From the NCBI GenBank assembly GCA_965248435.1, contig OZ252100.1:32001-96000 (forward strand): a DNA stretch of 64,000 bases, given 5' to 3'. This document shows positions 18,529 through 62,236 of the stretch, one piece after another. Below the pieces are notes generated by a model, which saw only the letters and a list, made by a program, of their open reading frames with translations, ran no database searches and was not told the DNA's origin. Position 1 is the first letter of the stretch, and each line of letters begins with the position of its first letter. A program made the position numbers and the translations under genes. Origin of the DNA: Candidatus Latescibacterota bacterium (GTDB lineage Bacteria; Latescibacterota; UBA2968; GCA-2709665).

Positions 18529-19621
18529 ATGGTTGAGGAAAAGATCTATCGCGCAGGGGCCATTGGGAGGACGGGCGGGGGAAACTACGGTCACGGAATT
18601 CATCTGGGTTACAAAGGGCACGAGCGGATCGAGTTCGTTTCAGTCGCCGATCCGGATGAGGAAGGTCGCCAAAGGGCTGAAGCCGAAACCGGCGCGAAAC
18701 GCACCTACGCGGATTACCAGGAGATGCTTGAACGGGAATCGCTTGATCTAGTAAGTGTCTGCCCGCGCTGGGTGGACTGCCATCTGGAGATGGTGCTGGC
18801 GTGTGTGGAGGCAGGCTGTCACGTATACTGTGAGAAACCCATGGCGATGCGTCTGGATGATGCAGACCGGATGGTCTCGGCGGCTGATCGCAGGGGTGTA
18901 AGAATTGCAGTTGCACATCAAGGGGTCTACCTGCCTCAAACCCGGGAAGCGAAGCGGCTCGTGGAGTCGGGTCGAATCGGGGACCCCCCATACAGTCTAT
19001 GCCTGGGGCAAACAGGACCATCGAGGGGGTGGAGAAGACACGATGGTGCTTGGGACGCACCTCTTCAACACGATGCGCTTTTTCTTCTCGGAGGTGGCCT
19101 GGATGTTCGCACACGTGACGGTTGAAGGGAGGGAAATTGGACCGGGCGATGTAAGGGATGGGAATGAACCGATTGGTCCAGTGGCCGGAGACTGTGTGGA
19201 GAGCTACTTCTCTTTTCAATCCGGCGTGAGTGGATTCTTTCGTTCGCGCGCCAACAGCCACCCAGGGGACCGGCCCTACGGGATGGAGATTGCGGGCCAG
19301 GAAGGACGCCTCGCGCTTTGGGGGGGATCGCCGGACCAGATTTTCCTGTGTCCCTACGGAGGTTCTGCTCCCGAGCGTCCTGACCGGGTATGGCAGCGGC
19401 TGGATGTCGAAACCGCGCCCTATACGGGGGGAAATAGTCGGGCCATCCAGGACCTGATTCAATCGATAGAGGAAGATCGCGACCCGCTCTCCAGCGGGCG
19501 AGATGCCACTTCGGCGCTCGAGATGATTCTGGGCGCATACGAATCTCAGATCTCGGGCGGACGCGTAGAATTTCCAATGAGCGAGCGAACCCACCCACTC
19601 GACCGGCTGCGTTGCAATTGA
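18529..19621 (+). pseudogene. Gfo/Idh/MocA oxidoreductase with +1 frameshift
   Basis: N-half (AIGRTGGGNYGHG, YCEKP) and C-half (KQDHRGGGED...) are in different frames; the shift is in GGGGACCCCCC at about 18979-18989. Confidence 0.8.
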
Positions 19622-19990
19622 GAACATAATCCGTCACAAGTTGAGAGGCCACATGTCGAGGGGAAAAAGTTACAGGGCCGGTGCCATCGGCCGCACGGGG
19701 AAGGGCCGCTACGGGCATGGCCTTCACCTGGCCTACAAGGAAATCGACGAAGTAGATCTGGTCGCGATCGCCGATCCGGACGATGAAGGACGCGCGGCCG
19801 CAAAAGAAGAAACAGGGGCCAAGACGGACTACGCCGATTACCGGGATATGCTGGAAAAGGAAGATCTGGATATTGTCAGCGTCTGCCCAAGATGGGTGGA
19901 CTGCCATCTCGAGATGGTGCTGGCCTGCGCCGATGCGGGATGCCACATCTACTGTGAGAAACCGATCGCGATGAGCTTGGAGGATGCCGA
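18867..19990 (+). repeat. 1,124-bp direct repeat, copy 1
   Basis: Appears identical to 22486-23609 (offset 3619): same ORF translations, including the same frameshift. Confidence 0.95.
19653..19990 (+). pseudogene. truncated 5' copy of the Gfo/Idh/MocA gene at 23272
   Basis: Identical N-terminus to ...IAMSLEDA, then runs into unrelated patchwork sequence. Confidence 0.9.
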
Positions 19991-20167
19991 GGCCTGGGTC
20001 CGACTGCCCTGGCTTATGCTTGCCGCTGAACAGATGCGTTCCGAGCACCATCATGTCTTCGCCACCGCCCCGGTGGTCCTGTGTGCCCAGCCTCAATGTC
20101 AGCCATTCGAATCGATCTATACAGTAATCGATGGCCCCGACTCCCACGCTGCCCATCCCGGGCCATC
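19991..20167. other. patchwork of four short fragments copied from downstream loci
   Basis: 19992-20024 = 39239-39271 (+); 20025-20091 = revcomp 23745-23811; 20092-20125 = 25605-25638 (+); 20123-20167 = revcomp 24536-24580. Confidence 0.95.
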
Positions 20168-20348
20168 TAATCAATCTGCCCATTAATTTCGGAAATTCTG
20201 GATGTGTGGCAAAAATTCTGGCTGCGATGGCGAAGAATGTGATAGCCAGAAGAATATCAGTGTGGAAAGGTCTTCCCCTTCGGATTTCGCGTCTTGTGCA
20301 CGAACTTCTAGGCGCAGTACCCGCGCCACATGACTTCCGGTCAAACAC
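20168..20348 (-). pseudogene. possible 5' fragment of a membrane protein gene cut by the patchwork junction
   Basis: Minus-strand frame reads ...HTDILLAITFFAIAARIFATHPEFPKLMGRL then hits the junction. Confidence 0.35.
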
Positions 20349-20663
20349 CGGATGAGGTTCTAACTAGGCAAAAATATTTGCCTAAACTCTAAACCCTCGC
20401 CGCGTCCGGCTGTGCGCAAGTAAGAATCGTGGTAATCTTTATATACTATCGTGTGGTTTCTAACCTATGACATCACGCGCAGATGTGGCTAGGCAAAGAT
20501 TCAACTATACATCACGGTGGTTTACTTATCCCTCATCTCAATCAAATCCAATCAGAGGGATTTATGAATTCGGCATTATGTGTTTCGATATTACGAGTGG
20601 TGTTCGGATTAGAAGACTTAGGCCACCCCTAACCAATACAACAGTAAGTGAGGATTTTTTGCC

Positions 20664-21434
20664 ATGGCAGATCGATCAACAGAGGAAGAGGACATAAACG
20701 ACGAGTTTAATCGGAGGAGAGGGCGACTTCGAATCGCACCGGGGCCTGTTGGTGAGGACGTTCCTCAGTGGATGAATGACGGTATCGAGGAACTGTACGG
20801 CCTCTTCAACACAACCGCCGACATATGGGACAAGAAATTTTCTGTGGAGTCTGATAATCTCTTCTACAGAGCTGTTTCGGAGCAAGTGCCGATTACATCG
20901 GCGGAACTGGACATTCTCGATCTTGGATCTGGCACGGGAATACAGCTCGAATCCGTTTTCGCCCGAGCACCAAATGCCAAGGTAACTGGGATCGACTTGG
21001 CTCCAAACATGCTGGATCAACTACGCTTCAAGTTCGTCAATAGAACTTCCCAGCTTCGGCTCGTTCAAGGATCAATACTTGATCTTCCATTAGGAGACAG
21101 GGAGTATGATTATGTCATTTCCACACTCACTATGCATCATTTTTCACCGGAGAACAAAGTTCGAATCTATCGCAAGGTGAGAGAAGCGTTACACGCAGCG
21201 GGTTTGTACATCGAGGGTGATCAGTCCACTACCGCCGAGGGCGAAAAAGAAACCCTCTATTGGTACCATCATTGGATTGCCAAGCTCCCGGGCGGAGATC
21301 GTTCTGAGTGGAACTACGACATCACTTTATCTGTGGGAACTCAGAAGCGAATCCTTCGCCAGTCCGGGTACTCTGAGGTCCAGCTTACGTGGGAGGAACC
21401 AGGTAAGCGAGCAGTTCTGGTGGCGAAGCGTTAG
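20664..21434 (+). CDS. class I SAM-dependent methyltransferase
   Basis: ILDLGSGTG motif I, VTGIDLAPNML, YDYVISTLTMHH. Confidence 0.88.
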   Translation: MADRSTEEEDINDEFNRRRGRLRIAPGPVGEDVPQWMNDGIEELYGLFNTTADIWDKKFSVESDNLFYRAVSEQVPITSAELDILDLGSGTGIQLESVFARAPNAKVTGIDLAPNMLDQLRFKFVNRTSQLRLVQGSILDLPLGDREYDYVISTLTMHHFSPENKVRIYRKVREALHAAGLYIEGDQSTTAEGEKETLYWYHHWIAKLPGGDRSEWNYDITLSVGTQKRILRQSGYSEVQLTWEEPGKRAVLVAKR

Positions 21435-21711
21435 CGCGCGCGAAGTGATGAACCAGTCGACGTCTGGTATTTCGCGTACGGAAGGATCAGGCCATGGTCC
21501 GTGGGACGTTTCGGTGGCCAGCCGTTGTGCTCTTTCGGATCTCAGAGCACAACCAATTCGTCTTCGTTGACAATGACCTTTCAGCTGTGACTTGTCAGTG
21601 ATTATGCTCATCTTTGAATTCTTGAGGGAAATATACTCCAGGGCTAAGAGTCAGCCTATTGCCGCGCGATCCACTCGCATCTCCCACGCTGAAAATCCGG
21701 AAAATAGTGAT

Positions 21712-22485
21712 ATGAAAGTCTTGATGGTGGAGATTTTTGGAAGGGGAGGTCTTGCTCACTATGTTTTCAACCTGGCTTCGGAACTCGCCAGGAGCGGCGC
21801 GAATATCTGCATCGTGACCGCCGCGGAATACGAGCTTGAATCCCTCTCGTTGCCCAGTGGTGCCGTGGTCAGTCCGAATTTGAGCCGTTTAGCATTTCGC
21901 CTGCGAGGCTTATTGCCCGATTCCATGCTTCGTCTAATCAAGGTTGTAGAGTTCCCCGCGAGCTCAGTCTCGGTCTTCAGAGTTGTTCGAAACTGGAAGC
22001 CCGATGTGATCCATCTACATTGCACAAGTTGGGCTATTCTATTGCTCCTAGTTTTCCTCAAACCATTAGGCGTTCCTCTAGTGTACACGGCTCACAACGT
22101 GATACCACACGAGTCTTCCGGTTTTCATGAGGCTATATTCAAAGTAATCTACAGGATGTCCGATCACATTATCGTGCATAGTGTGCAGGATCGAAAGCTA
22201 CTAAGCGATAAATTCGGTGTGGAAGACGCTGTATCGGTCGTTCCTCAGGGTAATTACTGCTTTCTCTGTGATGAACCCAAGATGGTTACCCGAATTCAAG
22301 CACGCAGCATCCTTGCAATCGAACAAGATGCGGATGTCGCGCTCTTCTTTGGATTCCTTCGCGAGAACAAAGGGTTGAACTTGCTGCTAACTGCGTGGCC
22401 AGAAGTGTGCAAAGTTCGTCCAACTGCGCGACTGCTGATAGCAGGGTACCCGAATCGGATGAACAGAAAGAGATTTGATCAGCTT
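21712..22485 (+). pseudogene. glycosyltransferase family 4, 3'-truncated
   Basis: MKVLMVEIFGRGGLAHY, KPDVIHLH, YTAHNVIPHE, LFFGFLRENKGL, LLIAG; the C-terminal EX7E region is absent because repeat copy 2 begins at 22486. Confidence 0.85.
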
Positions 22486-23240
22486 CCGGATGGTCTCGGC
22501 GGCTGATCGCAGGGGTGTAAGAATTGCAGTTGCACATCAAGGGGTCTACCTGCCTCAAACCCGGGAAGCGAAGCGGCTCGTGGAGTCGGGTCGAATCGGG
22601 GACCCCCCATACAGTCTATGCCTGGGGCAAACAGGACCATCGAGGGGGTGGAGAAGACACGATGGTGCTTGGGACGCACCTCTTCAACACGATGCGCTTT
22701 TTCTTCTCGGAGGTGGCCTGGATGTTCGCACACGTGACGGTTGAAGGGAGGGAAATTGGACCGGGCGATGTAAGGGATGGGAATGAACCGATTGGTCCAG
22801 TGGCCGGAGACTGTGTGGAGAGCTACTTCTCTTTTCAATCCGGCGTGAGTGGATTCTTTCGTTCGCGCGCCAACAGCCACCCAGGGGACCGGCCCTACGG
22901 GATGGAGATTGCGGGCCAGGAAGGACGCCTCGCGCTTTGGGGGGGATCGCCGGACCAGATTTTCCTGTGTCCCTACGGAGGTTCTGCTCCCGAGCGTCCT
23001 GACCGGGTATGGCAGCGGCTGGATGTCGAAACCGCGCCCTATACGGGGGGAAATAGTCGGGCCATCCAGGACCTGATTCAATCGATAGAGGAAGATCGCG
23101 ACCCGCTCTCCAGCGGGCGAGATGCCACTTCGGCGCTCGAGATGATTCTGGGCGCATACGAATCTCAGATCTCGGGCGGACGCGTAGAATTTCCAATGAG
23201 CGAGCGAACCCACCCACTCGACCGGCTGCGTTGCAATTGA
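22486..23240 (+). pseudogene. 5'-truncated duplicate of the first Gfo/Idh/MocA gene
   Basis: Same sequence as 18867-19621; lacks the NAD-binding N-terminus. Confidence 0.88.
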
Positions 23241-23609
23241 GAACATAATCCGTCACAAGTTGAGAGGCCACATGTCGAGGGGAAAAAGTTACAGGGCCGG
23301 TGCCATCGGCCGCACGGGGAAGGGCCGCTACGGGCATGGCCTTCACCTGGCCTACAAGGAAATCGACGAAGTAGATCTGGTCGCGATCGCCGATCCGGAC
23401 GATGAAGGACGCGCGGCCGCAAAAGAAGAAACAGGGGCCAAGACGGACTACGCCGATTACCGGGATATGCTGGAAAAGGAAGATCTGGATATTGTCAGCG
23501 TCTGCCCAAGATGGGTGGACTGCCATCTCGAGATGGTGCTGGCCTGCGCCGATGCGGGATGCCACATCTACTGTGAGAAACCGATCGCGATGAGCTTGGA
23601 GGATGCCGA
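22486..23609 (+). repeat. 1,124-bp direct repeat, copy 2
   Basis: Appears identical to 18867-19990. Confidence 0.95.
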
Positions 23610-24393
23610 TCGAATCGTGGAGGCGACAGATCGGGCAGGTGTAAAGATTGTCGTCGCGCACCAGGGTCTCTATGTGCCACAAGTTCACGAAGTGAAACGT
23701 CGAATCGATTCCGGAGTGATCGGCCGTTTGGAGGCGTTCTACGCGCTGGGCACACAGGACCACCGGGGCGGTGGCGAAGACATGATGGTGCTCGGAACGC
23801 ATCTGTTCAGCTTGATGCGATTCTTCGCAGGCGACGTCGACTGGATCTCTGCCCACGTTACGGCAGGGGGGCGTGATATTGGACCTGAGGATGTGAGGGA
23901 AGGGCACGAGCCGATCGGCCCTATAGCTGGAGATTCGGTGAGCAGCTATCTCTGGTTCAAGAGCGGGATTTCAGGTCATTTCTCCTCGAGAGTCAAGCAG
24001 AGCGCTTGGGCGCCCGATGGGGGTAAAGGTTCCGGGATGAGCCTGGAGCTCGTCGGGCAGGAGGGGAGGATCAGCATGAAGGGCGGTGCGGCGGGGGCGG
24101 TACGAATCTACCCTTTCGGAGTCTTCACGCCCTGGGACGGTGATCCGCCGTGGAGATCCCTCGACGTTGAGTGCCTGGATCACCTGCAGGGGAATCGGTT
24201 AGCCATCGTCGAGCTGATGGAGGCGGTCGAACAGGAACGCGAGCCCATCGGAAGCGCGCGAGACGCTCGTGCCGCCCTGGAAATGATTCTGGGCGCCTAT
24301 GAATCACAGACGAAAGGCGGCGTTCGAGTATCTTTCCCGCTTGCAGAACGATCCCATCCGCTCGAGCGATTCAAGAATGGAGCCAACACCTGA
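23272..24393 (+). CDS. Gfo/Idh/MocA family oxidoreductase
   Basis: AGAIGRTGKGRYGHG, HIYCEKP, MVLGTHLF; intact. Confidence 0.9.
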   Translation: MSRGKSYRAGAIGRTGKGRYGHGLHLAYKEIDEVDLVAIADPDDEGRAAAKEETGAKTDYADYRDMLEKEDLDIVSVCPRWVDCHLEMVLACADAGCHIYCEKPIAMSLEDADRIVEATDRAGVKIVVAHQGLYVPQVHEVKRRIDSGVIGRLEAFYALGTQDHRGGGEDMMVLGTHLFSLMRFFAGDVDWISAHVTAGGRDIGPEDVREGHEPIGPIAGDSVSSYLWFKSGISGHFSSRVKQSAWAPDGGKGSGMSLELVGQEGRISMKGGAAGAVRIYPFGVFTPWDGDPPWRSLDVECLDHLQGNRLAIVELMEAVEQEREPIGSARDARAALEMILGAYESQTKGGVRVSFPLAERSHPLERFKNGANT

Positions 24394-24474: not shown

Positions 24475-25434
24475 ATGGAGCTGAAGATCAACCGGGACAT
24501 CAAGGGTGAGGTCATCTCCCCAACATTGCTTGCAGGATGGCCCGGGATGGGCAGCGTGGGAGTCGGGGCCATCGATTACTTGAGGAGGCAGCTGGATGCA
24601 GCTCCTATCGCTGAGTTGGACCTGAGTGAGTTCTTCACTCCTGAAGCCGTTGTCGTGGAGAATGGAATCGCGAAGGCATTCACGGATCTGCCGACCCACG
24701 TCTTCTACTACGTGCGTGAACCCGAATTGATTATCTTCGAAAGCGAAGCGCAGGTCGGCGGTACAGGTGGAATAACTTTGATGACTCAGATTCTGGATTT
24801 CGCCTCTGAATTGAAAGTAAAGAAGATCTATACGGGCGCTGCGTTCTCCAGACCGATCAGCCACCGAGAACCGGTCAAGGTCCTGGGTGTGGCCAACCGC
24901 GAAAGCCTGAGAGATGGGCTCGTCCCTCACGGCGTTGAAATCCTGGACGAGGGGCATATTTCGGGGCTGAATGGCCTGCTTCTTGGGTTTGCAGGATTGA
25001 GGGATATCGAGGCGGCCTGTTTGCTGGCCACGATGCCACAATACGCCCAAATGATGCCAAATCCCAAGGCTTCCCGCGAGATCATCCGCGTCTTCGAATC
25101 GATCTTGGGCGTCCAGATCGACATGGAGGAGATCGATCAGGCGGCAGAGCAGATGGATCAAACGATGTTTGAGATTGAAGAGAAGATACGGGCAACGTTC
25201 TCCAGCATGGAGATGGAGGAGGATGAAGCGTCCGAACTCGAGGAGGTTGATGAAGAGCAGGTTCCTCAGTACGTGATGGAGAAGATCGAGAGATTATTCG
25301 AAGAGATTCAGCAAGAGAATTCGAGAGGGAAAGCGGCCCAGCTGAAAAAGGAACTGGATCGTTGGAATCTGTACAGTCTTTATGAAGATAGGTTCCTAAA
25401 CCTGTTCCGTCGAGATAAGGAGGGCGGCGTTTAG
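24475..25434 (+). CDS. PAC2 (proteasome assembly chaperone-like) family protein with acidic C-terminal extension
   Basis: LLAGWPGMGSVG..AIDYL, ISGLNGLLLG, CLLATMPQY..PNPKAS. Confidence 0.8.
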   Translation: MELKINRDIKGEVISPTLLAGWPGMGSVGVGAIDYLRRQLDAAPIAELDLSEFFTPEAVVVENGIAKAFTDLPTHVFYYVREPELIIFESEAQVGGTGGITLMTQILDFASELKVKKIYTGAAFSRPISHREPVKVLGVANRESLRDGLVPHGVEILDEGHISGLNGLLLGFAGLRDIEAACLLATMPQYAQMMPNPKASREIIRVFESILGVQIDMEEIDQAAEQMDQTMFEIEEKIRATFSSMEMEEDEASELEEVDEEQVPQYVMEKIERLFEEIQQENSRGKAAQLKKELDRWNLYSLYEDRFLNLFRRDKEGGV

Positions 25435-25497: not shown

Positions 25498-25608
25498 TTC
25501 CCGACGCCGACTTGCTTGAAATGTCTTGCCTGATACATCATTTGCGCCTAATTTGAGAGCCGGAATCGCAAAAATCTGTATAAGATGACTTTTCAATGAG
25601 AGGACTCA

Positions 25609-26670
25609 ATGTCAGCCATTCGAATCGATCTATACAGTGATACGGCGACCAAACCGACCAAAGAGATGAGGGAGTTCATGTGCTCCTGCGAGGTGGGTGA
25701 CGAACAGCGATACGAGGATCCTTCGGCGAACGAACTCCAGGGAATGGTCGCCGAGATGCTCGGAAAGGAAGCGGCGATCTTTCTCCCTTCAGGCACGATG
25801 TGTAATCATATCGCATACCTGGTTCACTGTAAACCAGGGGATATGGTCCTGATGGAGAAAACAGCGCATCCTCTTATATCCGAGGCCGGAGGAGCGTGTG
25901 CGCTTGCAGGGGTGACGATCTACCCCGTCGACGGACAGAAAGGACAGTTTTCGGCCGAGCAGGTCGCCGAGTTGATGTCTTATCCATACAGTTTGCGCAG
26001 GCCGGGCGTGAGGGTCGTCTCTGTAGAACAGACTGCGAACAGTCCTGGAGGGTGCATCTGGCCGCTCGAGCAGATGAGGGCCGTGTGCGAGGTGACGCAC
26101 GAGAAAGGGGCCATTGCGCACATGGATGGGGCACGGCTGTTGAACGCGGTCGTTGCCACGGGGATTTCGCCTCAGGACTACGCGGAAACGTTCGATTCGG
26201 TGTGGATCGACCTGAGCAAAGGGTTGGGGGCCCCGGTAGGCGGGGTTCTCGCAGGCTCCGAAGCGTTTATCCAGGAAGCGTGGGCGTGGAAGCATCGTCT
26301 GGGCGGTGCAATGCGGCAGTCCGGCATCCTTGCAGCGGCCGGGATTTACGCACTCAAGCACAACGTCGATCGGCTGGCCGCGGACCACATAAATGCAAAA
26401 CGCTTCGCAAAAGGCATTTACAGTGCCGAGGGTATCGCAGTGGATCCGGATTCCGTGGAGACGAACATGGTGCGTTTCGATGTTGCAGATACCGGGTTGT
26501 CATCCTCGGCCTTCGTCGAGCGGTTGATCGGGGAAGAAGGTGTCAGGGTCAGCACGCCTGGCCCGACTGCACTTCGAGCCGTCCCACATCTCGGGATCAC
26601 CGAAGATGACATCGACTCAGCAGTGGAATCGGTCCATGGCCTGGCGGGACGGATTGTGGAGGGCGTTTAG
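25609..26670 (+). CDS. ltaE: low-specificity L-threonine aldolase family (PLP)
   Basis: IDLYSDTATKP, FLPSGTM.N, HMDGARL, DLSKGLGAPVG, GGAMRQSG. Confidence 0.88.
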   Translation: MSAIRIDLYSDTATKPTKEMREFMCSCEVGDEQRYEDPSANELQGMVAEMLGKEAAIFLPSGTMCNHIAYLVHCKPGDMVLMEKTAHPLISEAGGACALAGVTIYPVDGQKGQFSAEQVAELMSYPYSLRRPGVRVVSVEQTANSPGGCIWPLEQMRAVCEVTHEKGAIAHMDGARLLNAVVATGISPQDYAETFDSVWIDLSKGLGAPVGGVLAGSEAFIQEAWAWKHRLGGAMRQSGILAAAGIYALKHNVDRLAADHINAKRFAKGIYSAEGIAVDPDSVETNMVRFDVADTGLSSSAFVERLIGEEGVRVSTPGPTALRAVPHLGITEDDIDSAVESVHGLAGRIVEGV

Positions 26671-36908: not shown

Positions 36909-38366
36909 ATGAAGAAGGCTAAAATCGTCTGCACCATCGGACCCTCTTCAAGCTCCAAGGAGATGATTACCCGGTTGATCGAGGCGGGCATGGACGTCGC
37001 CCGTCTCAATTTTTCTCACGGTGATCATTCAGCACAAAAGGCAAATATCCTCGCAGTCAGAGCGGCCTCCGAACAGATGAACCGGCCTGTGGCCATCCTC
37101 CAGGATCTTCAAGGCCCCAGGATCAGGGTCGGCGAAATCCACGAGGGATCCATCGAACTCGTTTCAGGGGAACGGGTTGTTCTCACGACGCGCGAAGTGA
37201 CTGGCACGTCCAAGGAGATACCCACCACCTATCAGATGCTTCCGGAAGATGTGGGGAAAGGGGACAGGATTTTACTCGATGACGGCCAGATCGAGTTAAG
37301 CGTCCTCGATGTGGATGGGCGCGACGTGCAATGCGAAGTGGTGACAGGGGGACATCTGAAGGCTCACAAGGGGATCAACCTTCCCGGGGTCCAGGTGAGT
37401 GCATCGTCATTAACTGTCAAAGATCGGGAAGACTTGGCGTTTGGCATCGATCAGGGCGTCGACTATTTGGCCCTGTCGTTCGTCCGGGGTCCATCCGATG
37501 TTCAGGAAGTGAAGGATCTGTTAAAGGAGCGGGGATCGGACGTCCCGGTGATCGCCAAGCTGGAGCGCCCGGAGGCGGTCGAGAACCTGGATGCCATCCT
37601 GGAGATCTCGGACGGAATCATGGTGGCCAGAGGCGACCTCGGCGTGGAGTTGTCTCCCGAAGAGGTCCCCATCGTCCAGAAACAGATGATTTCGGCGGCC
37701 AACCAGGCGGGGGCGCTTGTCATCACGGCTACCCAAATGCTGGAGTCGATGACCACGAACCCTCGCCCGACGCGGGCAGAGGCCTCCGATGTCGCCAATG
37801 CCGTCTTCGATGGGACCGACGCGGTGATGCTTTCGGGGGAAACCGCGGTCGGGAAGTATCCCGAAGCGTCGGTACGCATGATGGCGCGGATTGTCGAGCG
37901 CACAGAGACCAGTATGCTGGCCGAGGCACCGATACGTCGCCGTGCCGATCAGTCGGATTCCCTCACCTTCCCGGGTGCGATCGGGCACGCCGCTGCAACA
38001 GTGGCCCAGGATATGGGGGCCAAGGCGATCGTCGCCTTCACGCAATCCGGGTCGACCGCAATGTTGATTTCCAAGTGGCGACCCAGGACCCCGATCATCG
38101 CGTTTACGCCGCACGAAGTCATCTTGAGGCGGCTCTGCCTTTGCTGGGGGACCGAGCCGAGGGTGATGGAACTCGTGGAGGATACGGACGAGATGGTTTC
38201 AGAAGTGAGCGAACAACTGCTTAAGGAAGGGAGCGTCGAAGTCGGGGACGTGCTCGTGATCCTTGCCGGGGCCCCTGTGACGGCGCGGGCCGAGACGAAC
38301 CTGCTGAAGCTGCACCGGGTGGGTGAGGGACAATCCGGTCCAGATTTGGAGGATCAGTCAAAGTGA
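36909..38366 (+). CDS. pyk: pyruvate kinase
   Basis: KIVCTIGP, ARLNFSHG, IAKLE, IMVARGDLGVE, ATQMLESM, DAVMLSGET. Confidence 0.97.
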   Translation: MKKAKIVCTIGPSSSSKEMITRLIEAGMDVARLNFSHGDHSAQKANILAVRAASEQMNRPVAILQDLQGPRIRVGEIHEGSIELVSGERVVLTTREVTGTSKEIPTTYQMLPEDVGKGDRILLDDGQIELSVLDVDGRDVQCEVVTGGHLKAHKGINLPGVQVSASSLTVKDREDLAFGIDQGVDYLALSFVRGPSDVQEVKDLLKERGSDVPVIAKLERPEAVENLDAILEISDGIMVARGDLGVELSPEEVPIVQKQMISAANQAGALVITATQMLESMTTNPRPTRAEASDVANAVFDGTDAVMLSGETAVGKYPEASVRMMARIVERTETSMLAEAPIRRRADQSDSLTFPGAIGHAAATVAQDMGAKAIVAFTQSGSTAMLISKWRPRTPIIAFTPHEVILRRLCLCWGTEPRVMELVEDTDEMVSEVSEQLLKEGSVEVGDVLVILAGAPVTARAETNLLKLHRVGEGQSGPDLEDQSK

Positions 38367-39754
38367 CCGACGAACTGGCCCCCGCAGGAGCAGCCGGAGG
38401 GGCAACAGAACATCCGATCGAGGCGCTCGTGGAGGTGTCCACACATCTCCTCGAGATGGAAGACCGGAGGACACTCAAAGGGGTGCTCAACGGACAGAGG
38501 CCCGCCGATCTGGCTGACCTGATGCGGCTCATAGATAACAAGACTAGAGAAAGCCTGTTCAACCTGCTCGATGACCACCTGGCAGCGGAGGTGCTGGCCG
38601 AGTCAGATGCGGCAACCGCCGTCGCGATTGCCGAGGACCTGGGACCCCGGGAGTTGTCGGACCTCGTCGAGGAGATGGCACCCGACGACGCTGCAGACCT
38701 GCTGTCAGAACTGGAGGATGAGGAGGCCGAGAAGGTCCTGGATCTGATGGAGGTTGAAGAGGCGCAGGAAGTCCAGGAACTGATGGCGCACGAAGAGGAT
38801 ACCGGGGGCGGCATCATGACCCCGGAGCTTGTTTTGGCACAAGAAAATACAACGGTATCCGAGGTGATCGAGACACTCCGGCGGGAGGCCGAAGAGACCG
38901 ACATTGCCGAGCTTTATGTCGTCGATGAGAAAGACAGGCTTGTCGGGGAGGTCCCACTTCATCGATTGGTGACAGCCCGGCCTGGGTCGACGATGGCCGA
39001 CCTGATGTTCCGGGATTTGATCACGGTGACACCCGAAACGGATCAGGAGGAGATCGCCAGGCTGTTTACGCGCTACGATCTGCTCGCCCTGCCGGTCGTG
39101 GACGCTGACGGTACCCTGGTCGGGCAGATCACGGTGGACGACGTGCTGGATGTGATCCACGAAGAGGCGACTGAAGATATCTACAAAATGGCGGGGACGA
39201 GCGACCAGGAGATCGTCCATCCCTCGGTCTTTGGCGTTGCCTGGGTCCGACTGCCCTGGCTTATGCTTGCCCTTCTCGGAAGCTTCCTGTCGGGACTCGT
39301 GATCCACGTCTTCGACGTCGCGCTGGAGCGGGTGATTACACTGGCCGCCTTCATTCCGGTGATTATGGCCACCGGGGGCAACAGCGGCCTGCAGGCATCC
39401 ACGGTAACCGTGCGGAATCTGGTCACAGGCCAGGCTTCGACTCGTTCGATATTACGAATGGTCTTGAGAGAAGTCGGTACCGCTGTCGTGATCGGGGCAG
39501 CGTGCGGGATCGCCGCGAGTGCGGTGGCCTGGCTCTGGTTTCAGGAACCCCTGGTAGGTGTGTGCGTGGGCGGGGCCATGTTCCTCGTGATCACCCTGGC
39601 CGTTTTTCTTGGGGTTCTGGCTCCTGTGGTTTTTCAGCGTGTCGGTATCGATCCGGCCATAGCCTCTGCCCCCTTCATCACGACGGCCAATGATATTCTG
39701 GGACTGTTCATCTATCTGGGTCTCGCCACGATCCTGATCGAACGGTTTATGTAG
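38363..39754 (+). CDS. mgtE: magnesium transporter MgtE
   Basis: MgtE_N, CBS pair, RLPWL, GGNSGLQ, IDPAIASAPFITTAND. Confidence 0.95.
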   Translation: MTDELAPAGAAGGATEHPIEALVEVSTHLLEMEDRRTLKGVLNGQRPADLADLMRLIDNKTRESLFNLLDDHLAAEVLAESDAATAVAIAEDLGPRELSDLVEEMAPDDAADLLSELEDEEAEKVLDLMEVEEAQEVQELMAHEEDTGGGIMTPELVLAQENTTVSEVIETLRREAEETDIAELYVVDEKDRLVGEVPLHRLVTARPGSTMADLMFRDLITVTPETDQEEIARLFTRYDLLALPVVDADGTLVGQITVDDVLDVIHEEATEDIYKMAGTSDQEIVHPSVFGVAWVRLPWLMLALLGSFLSGLVIHVFDVALERVITLAAFIPVIMATGGNSGLQASTVTVRNLVTGQASTRSILRMVLREVGTAVVIGAACGIAASAVAWLWFQEPLVGVCVGGAMFLVITLAVFLGVLAPVVFQRVGIDPAIASAPFITTANDILGLFIYLGLATILIERFM

Positions 39755-62204: not shown

Positions 62205-62236
62205 AAAAGGCCCCTGAGAATCCTCAGGGGCCTTTT
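62205..62236. terminator. bidirectional terminator
   Basis: AAAAGGCCCCTGAG-AATC-CTCAGGGGCCTTTT. Confidence 0.85.

Follow-up and report, generated by a model that had tools for sequence, protein, structure and literature searches.

How does a bacterial chromosome come to carry four short, exact copies of its own neighbouring genes, set end to end at the edge of a duplication? The question is raised by positions 19991–20167 of the window, i.e. of the whole 64,000-nucleotide stretch of DNA analysed here, which belongs to a two-contig genome of 5.67 Mb from a host described as a marine bacterium. The features on which the argument turns are the following.

18529–19621, plus strand: GfoA, a paralogue of the Gfo/Idh/MocA oxidoreductase type whose coding sequence is divided between two frames (Pfam).
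18867–19990, plus strand: repeat R, copy 1, in which a 19-nt spacer joins the 3' part of GfoA to the 5' part of GfoB; 100% identical to copy 2.
19641–20186, plus strand: truncated GfoB duplicate of about 117 codons, reading into the patch of short pieces (ORF list, Pfam).
19991, no strand: untemplated G, differing from the native continuation (T at 23610) and from the base before the mgtE donor (T at 39238).
19992–20024, plus strand: 33-nt copy of mgtE in sense orientation, equal to 39239–39271.
20025–20091, minus strand: 67-nt inverted copy of GfoB, the reverse complement of 23745–23811.
20092–20125, plus strand: 34-nt copy of the ltaE start, equal to 25605–25638 (4 nt of upstream sequence and the first 30 nt of ltaE).
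20123–20167, minus strand: 45-nt inverted copy of PAC2, the reverse complement of 24536–24580, sharing the overlap AGT with the ltaE piece.
20168–22485, plus strand: fragment U, 2,318 bp, single-copy and low in GC (BLAST, GC measurement).
20664–21434, plus strand: intact class I SAM methyltransferase of 256 aa within U (Pfam Methyltransf_25, E = 4.8e-19).
21712–22485, plus strand: GT4 glycosyltransferase truncated at the joint between U and R, with 258 of about 400 residues (Pfam, homologue alignment).
22486–23609, plus strand: repeat R, copy 2, 100% identical to copy 1.
23260–24393, plus strand: intact GfoB, 377 aa, containing the 67-nt donor (Pfam).
24536–24580, plus strand: intact donor in PAC2, gene 24475–25434 (sequence match, Pfam).
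25605–25638, plus strand: intact donor at the start of ltaE, gene 25609–26670 (sequence match, Pfam).
39239–39271, plus strand: intact donor in mgtE, gene 38363–39754 (sequence match, Pfam).

The two copies of R, each 1,124 bp, were recovered by both self-BLAST and genome-wide BLAST. The left edge of copy 1 is continuous with the 5' end of GfoA and the right edge of copy 2 with the 3' end of GfoB, both as in the native order, and the edges that face each other, the right one of copy 1 and the left one of copy 2 where it meets U, are novel. Novel joints lie at 19990/19991, at three positions within the patch, at 20167/20168 and at 22485/22486. The ancestral locus order is GfoA-GfoB-PAC2-ltaE, and the derived allele is a tandem duplication of R with a 2,495-bp insert at the duplication joint, of which the patch of short pieces is only the left 177 bp and U the remainder. 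Altogether, the untemplated G, the four copied pieces, U and the second R add 3,619 bp. Since both R copies and all four pieces match their counterparts perfectly, the event is, judged by divergence, recent.

In a genome-wide BLAST the four pieces gave E-values of 1.2e-8 to 1.5e-27, and each had exactly one other copy in the 5.67-Mb genome. The donors lie 136 (GfoB), 927 (PAC2), 1,996 (ltaE) and 15,630 bp (mgtE) downstream of the native breakpoint at 23609/23610; by hand arithmetic, the chance that four random donors would all fall within 16 kb on either side is about 1e-9. The identities of mgtE, GfoB, PAC2 and ltaE were confirmed by Pfam; all four genes are on the plus strand and the orientations of the pieces alternate (+, -, +, -). 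A first-pass annotation made from the letters had already delimited the repeat and the pieces, and every coordinate was reproduced by re-comparison and BLAST, as were its statements that the donors are intact and all on the downstream side and that the patch sits at the joint of a duplication, flanked by the R copies. It described a patchwork at a breakpoint, which stands, but overlooked the 2.3-kb foreign fragment in the same joint, and with that fragment the reading shifts from a breakpoint curiosity to the footprint of a gene acquisition. An origin of the pieces as restriction fragments was rejected, as no common motif was found at the eight donor ends. The first eight bases after the native breakpoint (23610–23617), TCGAATCG, recur in the ltaE piece at 20107–20114, and AATCGAT recurs in the PAC2 piece; however, a random 30-mer matches the patch over at least 8 nt in 11.9% of trials, so the recurrence of TCGAATCG, at a chance of about 12% per flank, was given no weight as a mechanistic clue and is probably a coincidence.

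Fragment U differs from its surroundings in composition, with a GC content of 48.9% vs 56.6% for the genome and 58–61% for the flanks. BLAST found no second copy in the 5.67-Mb two-contig genome and no match among 72,556 plasmids and 50,697 phage records; the left 496 bp contain no ORF assigned to a Pfam family. The second contig, C2 (17,156 bp), has the GC content of the chromosome (56.6%) and carries no copy of U. Among 185,579 species genomes (one per species), relatives of the methyltransferase were found only in four Ca. Poribacteria MAGs (loci L022–L025), with 63–70% amino acid and about 70% nucleotide identity, and the GC content of these loci is 48–49%, like that of U. The native GfoB-PAC2-ltaE block had no DNA match in the four MAGs; a longer query containing this block matched 30 of the 31 genomes in the comparison of relatives. 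For the glycosyltransferase, the best homologue among 5.8 billion proteins (P0002, 400 aa, 53% identity) aligns over its residues 1–259 and the alignment ends at base 22485, and 141 of about 400 residues are missing, cut off at the joint. The low GC content, the truncated glycosyltransferase and the Poribacteria-like methyltransferase without the native neighbours in those MAGs mark U, on compositional and homology grounds, as foreign, with arbitrarily cut ends. In the Poribacteria loci the glycosyltransferase is not adjacent to the methyltransferase; hence, what these loci share with U is one related gene, and they are not the donor, although the relationship and the equal GC content give a hint to the donor lineage. 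U was also considered as a transposable element and rejected: it is single-copy and encodes only the methyltransferase and the truncated glycosyltransferase, with no transposase, and no inverted repeat inside it was listed when the window was compared with itself by BLAST. Likewise, a target-site duplication of a transposon would be short, and the duplicated stretch is 1,124 bp.

The joints themselves consist of one added base followed by overlaps of 0, 0 and 3 nt (AGT), i.e. microhomology is present in one of the four assessable joints (3 nt) and none is extended. When the would-be continuation of each donor was compared with the next piece, and conversely, over 12-nt flanks of the joints with known donors, 24 of 96 positions were identical, against 24.5 ± 4.3 for random sequence. 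The joints are, by this measure, homology-independent, and their description as essentially blunt in the first-pass annotation is borne out. The genome encodes a matching repair machinery: Ku (293 aa; TIGR02772, Ku_bact, 273 bits vs a cut-off of 150) adjoins LigD (775 aa) at C1:4144466–4147714, and LigD contains the domains ligD_pol (234.6 bits, cut-off 214.7), LigD_PE (157.9, cut-off 144) and NHEJ_ligase_lig (258, cut-off 227.75). Ku and LigD, which were among the genes that the first-pass annotation had proposed to look for, are encoded side by side and with all domains above curated cut-offs. For RecB, only matches below the cut-off were found. At C1:3253498–3258794, neighbouring ORFs of 1,082 and 1,036 aa give UvrD/RecB-like helicase matches below the RecB cut-off and may represent an AddAB-like end-processing pair.

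On balance, we consider it probable that the locus is a Ku/LigD-type end-joining scar that also records the horizontal transfer of 2.3 kb of foreign DNA. A single recent, homology-independent end-joining repair event, for which the Ku and LigD encoded in this genome are the most likely enzymes, would have joined the chromosome end at 19990 to an end starting at 18867, giving the 1,124-bp tandem duplication; the second end could have been supplied by a sister chromosome, or by the duplex itself if its break was staggered by 1.1 kb and then filled in. Before sealing, the gap would have taken up one untemplated G, four stretches of 33–67 nt originating within 16 kb downstream of the break, and a linear foreign piece of 2.3 kb with arbitrary ends. 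The short stretches may have been copied by a repair polymerase or ligated as fragments of the degraded sister arm. The break, the acting enzymes, copying as opposed to ligation and the singleness of the event are what we infer here. End joining was also the interpretation of the first-pass annotation, and in this it agrees with a real scar at a duplication joint, with blunt joins and with the presence of Ku and LigD; however, its view of the pieces as ligated RecBCD/AddAB degradation products fits no better than copying by a repair polymerase. Helicase-nucleases of the AddAB/RecBCD type release single strands and not blunt duplexes, and the source of short duplex fragments is therefore left unexplained. 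Also, end joining by itself does not account for the 1,124-bp duplication, which requires two breaks on two sisters or a very long stagger, and no sequence feature links the event to Ku/LigD over another ligase or polymerase.

Bacterial end joining is known to leave scars with some of these properties. In Streptomyces ambofaciens, repair of I-SceI breaks by NHEJ yielded two inserts, of 42 and 83 bp, that stemmed from sequence close to the break, and one of 30 bp from a distant gene; five insertions of 30 bp to 18.8 kb were reported, with single non-templated bases at blunt ends and microhomologies of 0–6 nt, and a promoting role of NHEJ in horizontal transfer was proposed (Hoff et al. 2018, PMC5869714). 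The short inserts of own DNA from near the break and the single non-templated base are shared with the locus described here. In contrast, the S. ambofaciens breaks were induced, each scar received one insert, all inserted DNA was endogenous and, in the accessible text of that study, no target duplication is described (PMC5869714), whereas the event here is natural and combined a row of four pieces with a foreign fragment and a duplication of 1.1 kb. In Sinorhizobium meliloti, a heterologous cassette was captured at a chromosomal break in a Ku/LigD-dependent manner; 2 of 285 clones received two cassettes in tandem, 1-nt insertions were usual at blunt ends, and the authors refer to a correlation linking NHEJ to the transfer of DNA from distant donors (Dupuy et al. 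2018, PMC6379672). Here too, a linear foreign fragment would have been ligated into a chromosomal break without homology; however, the S. meliloti cassette was introduced by electroporation, with selection, at an engineered site, and the accessible part of the report mentions neither local filler nor a duplication (PMC6379672). In the literature searched, as far as its accessible text goes, no natural chain of several short local pieces in a bacterial chromosome, with or without foreign DNA, and no four-piece chain was found, but only single inserts or two tandem cassettes. The statement of the first-pass annotation that such scars are 'little described' should be toned down, as single local inserts of 30–83 bp at induced breaks repaired by NHEJ have been published for Streptomyces (PMC5869714).

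A different origin, which we regard as unlikely although it has real strengths, is replicative template switching of the FoSTeS/MMBIR type, in which a 3' end released at 19990 copied four local stretches and subsequently a foreign molecule before the nascent end re-engaged 1,124 bp behind its start, at 18867, the duplication arising as a side effect. In eukaryotes, the textbook signature of FoSTeS/MMBIR is a tandem duplication that carries several short, locally templated inserts. The locus shows just such a duplication, with short inserts in both, alternating orientations (+, -, +, -) from within 16 kb, and donors that BLAST shows to be intact, as they must be by definition if they were copied. 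The replication geometry is also compatible: dnaA lies at 3.08 Mb beside the skew minimum and the skew maximum at about 226 kb, so at C1 ~52 kb the plus strand is the leading strand, and for a fork moving rightwards all the donors are still to come and the point of re-entry has already been passed. A terminus-specific process was dismissed, as the locus lies about 174 kb before the skew maximum, which is too far. Template switching accounts for the duplication more naturally than end joining does, and the 'Tandem' preprint names both template switching and NHEJ by Ku/LigD for bacterial duplication junctions of 0–1 bp. On the other hand, three of the four assessable joints lack microhomology and none is extended, an untemplated base is present, and the template for 2.3 kb would have been a foreign molecule of which the 5.67-Mb assembly contains no copy. 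In the literature searched, no bacterial precedent for such serial switches was found. Eukaryotic filler DNA, as known from polymerase-theta end joining, T-DNA junctions, yeast break insertions and FoSTeS/MMBIR, consists of short copies from near the break, in either orientation and with donors unchanged, at a rearrangement joint; templated insertion in eukaryotes typically primes on microhomology of 1–5 nt or more, with enzymes that bacteria lack. The locus resembles eukaryotic filler in its several short local copies, their orientations and their unchanged donors, but differs from it in that three of the four joints have no overlap. Papers on such eukaryotic processes include PMC11724301, PMC2671141 and PMC9121065.

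Far less probable is an SPDIR-like process, in which free single strands anneal at a replication fork, or the homology-facilitated illegitimate recombination of DNA taken up by transformation. The sizes of the pieces would fit, since SPDIR in Acinetobacter baylyi displaces stretches of 3 to ~100 bp that may be intragenomic or foreign, and in this the two cases are alike (10.1101/2023.11.22.568220). However, as far as the accessible text of that preprint goes, SPDIR requires microhomology or extended microhomology at both crossovers, involves a single piece and replaces sequence rather than adding it, giving microindels of ~100 bp or less (10.1101/2023.11.22.568220); the flank test (24/96) revealed no such microhomology, and the gain here is 3,619 bp with a 1.1-kb duplication. 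In addition, U has no homologous anchor in this genome.

An artefact, whether through misassembly, through a chimera formed by ligation or MDA, or through a contaminating construct, would be a highly improbable source of the structure, although chimeric library molecules do typically look like patchworks of short exact pieces and every run with the full structure derives from one sample. Runs X16–X19 represent this sample, which is possibly the source of the assembly and not an independent isolate; of the sampled words of a 5.3-kb stretch, 98–99% were present in its four runs, and 34% in X20, a run from another study with another organism label. Runs X2–X15 contained small shares of these words. 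Contigs assembled from the reads of X16, X19, X20 and X1 were compared with 18600–22485, which includes a single copy of R. In X16, R forms a contig of exactly 1,124 nt at a depth of 60.6 vs 28.7 for U, and the 67-nt GfoB piece forms a contig at a depth of 59.5, corresponding to two copies. Each of the four patch joints is bridged in X16 by a contig of its own of 57–61 nt, with about 30 nt per side and depths of 28.9–30.5: R copy 1 to G and mgtE by 19961–20021, mgtE to GfoB by 19995–20054, GfoB to ltaE by 20062–20121 and ltaE to PAC2 by 20096–20152. The latter two joints are also bridged in X19, where they are the patch joints among the matches listed, and in both runs a single contig covers 20138–22485 and extends 30 nt further; R has a depth of 20.9 vs 10.3 for U in X19. 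Loose contig ends at 19992, 20024 and 20125 correspond to the native mgtE and ltaE contexts, and the left-flank contig of X16, for which as for every contig there is one depth figure, stands at 39.4 vs 28.7 for U. A chimera would mean one molecule, but the joint k-mer depth in X16 equals single-copy depth, and two joints and the U contig recur in X19. Also, MDA data would look different from the even depth and the contigs of up to 128 kb seen here; the long contigs indicate genomic DNA. The structure is thus neither an assembly error nor a single chimeric molecule. The first-pass annotation had taken joints confined to a single read or library, or R at single-copy depth, as the pattern that would speak for an artefact; instead, the contigs place the joints at single-copy depth and R at about twice that depth in X16, with the doubling of R and two of the joints repeated in X19.

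Capture of cDNA by a reverse transcriptase jumping between mRNAs, or spacer-like integration of prespacers by Cas1-Cas2, is barely credible: two pieces have the spacer-like length of 33–34 nt and every donor lies in a transcribed gene, but neither RVT_1 (reverse transcriptase) nor Cas1, which the first-pass annotation had suggested as a target and which was looked for in vain, has a match in the 97.5%-complete genome, the pieces switch between sense and antisense, whereas the four genes share the plus strand, and there are no repeats between them. A CRISPR array was rejected for the same reasons, the pieces abutting without repeats and Cas1 having no match.

The polarity of the change follows from the X20 run. 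A 6,825-nt contig spans 18600–19990 and then continues directly into native GfoB, PAC2 and ltaE; it matches 18600–19990 with 8 substitutions and one missing base (~99.4% identity), and it places the donors 136, 927 and 1,999 nt beyond the breakpoint, where 136, 927 and 1,996 would be expected. This contig, at a depth of only 3.3, is the empty site, without U, in a near-identical strain from another study. Apart from this bridging contig of X20, neither X20 nor X1 has cover on U. X1 covers 19056–19435 and 19808–19990, followed by the native continuation, as expected whether the insert is present or not. U is also missing from the closest species genome (G001, ~80% identity), in which the GfoB-PAC2-ltaE block begins about 200 bp after the upstream gene, as read from match coordinates; none of the matches listed in 30 relatives falls in U. 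Homologues of PAC2 carry inconsistent MAG labels, with 71% identity to Latescibacteria and 59% to Gemmatimonadetes.

The duplicated stretch falls within a pair of tandem paralogues, GfoA at 18529–19621 and GfoB at 23260–24393, which are 71–76% identical in nucleotide sequence over 220–585 nt. In relatives, one to three Gfo-type genes lie upstream of PAC2, and this variation, together with the paralogy of GfoA and GfoB, suggests a locus with a history of duplication. The N-terminal domain of GfoA is encoded in ORF 18529–19125 and the C-terminal domain in ORF 18905–19621 (Pfam). The frameshift is one extra C in a run of six at 18974–18980 (~18979; 22593–22599 in copy 2), and omitting base 18979 yields a single open frame of 363 aa. 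The X20 contig is one base shorter at this C-run, which restores the 363-aa frame (depth only 3.3). Since the extra C is present in both R copies, the decay of GfoA into a pseudogene probably preceded the duplication of R. The truncated GfoB duplicate matches only positions 7–107 of 120 of the GFO_IDH_MocA profile (Pfam).

The end-joining reading carries a wider claim, namely that bacterial end joining has been caught importing foreign genes while stitching in short pieces from the neighbourhood of the broken chromosome; we consider this quite possible, if a little short of probable. The role of Ku/LigD in acquiring DNA from distant donors has so far been supported, in the papers cited here, only by a genome-wide correlation and by engineered breaks with selected cassettes (PMC6379672). 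The locus is a natural, read-supported example for which both the 'before' and the 'after' allele are available, and arbitrarily cut foreign DNA, homology-free joints and the repair genes are all found within one genome. The four-piece chain would mean that bacterial break-repair scars can equal the complexity known from yeast, plants and tumours, and, if the reading is true, the locus would be a bacterial counterpart of the templated-insertion or filler scars of eukaryotes. Its signature, abutting and non-collinear exact copies of nearby genes, can be scanned for in complete genomes with and without Ku/LigD, which would give the frequency of such scars and, again if the reading is true, would allow these patchworks to be used to count NHEJ-mediated horizontal transfers.

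Within this genome, a k-mer scan for abutting, non-collinear, two-copy exact segments of at least 25 nt returned 76 adjacent pairs, four of which are the scar patch. The only other four-segment chain, at C1:2509321, was rejected as a second patchwork, as it belongs to a repeat family with 131 BLAST matches; the remaining pairs, judged from partner coordinates alone, are tandem or clustered paralogous families. In a scan of two-copy repeats, R was the only exact repeat of at least 1 kb with neighbouring copies. The dispersed repeat family occupies C1:2509321–2509430 and about 130 other sites, with units of about 48–88 nt and 85–96% identity, often in tandem arrays (e.g. C1:1527781–1527894 and 4092050–4092148). 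Elsewhere in the window, self-BLAST revealed a near-perfect 32-nt palindrome at 62205–62236 (30 of 32 positions).
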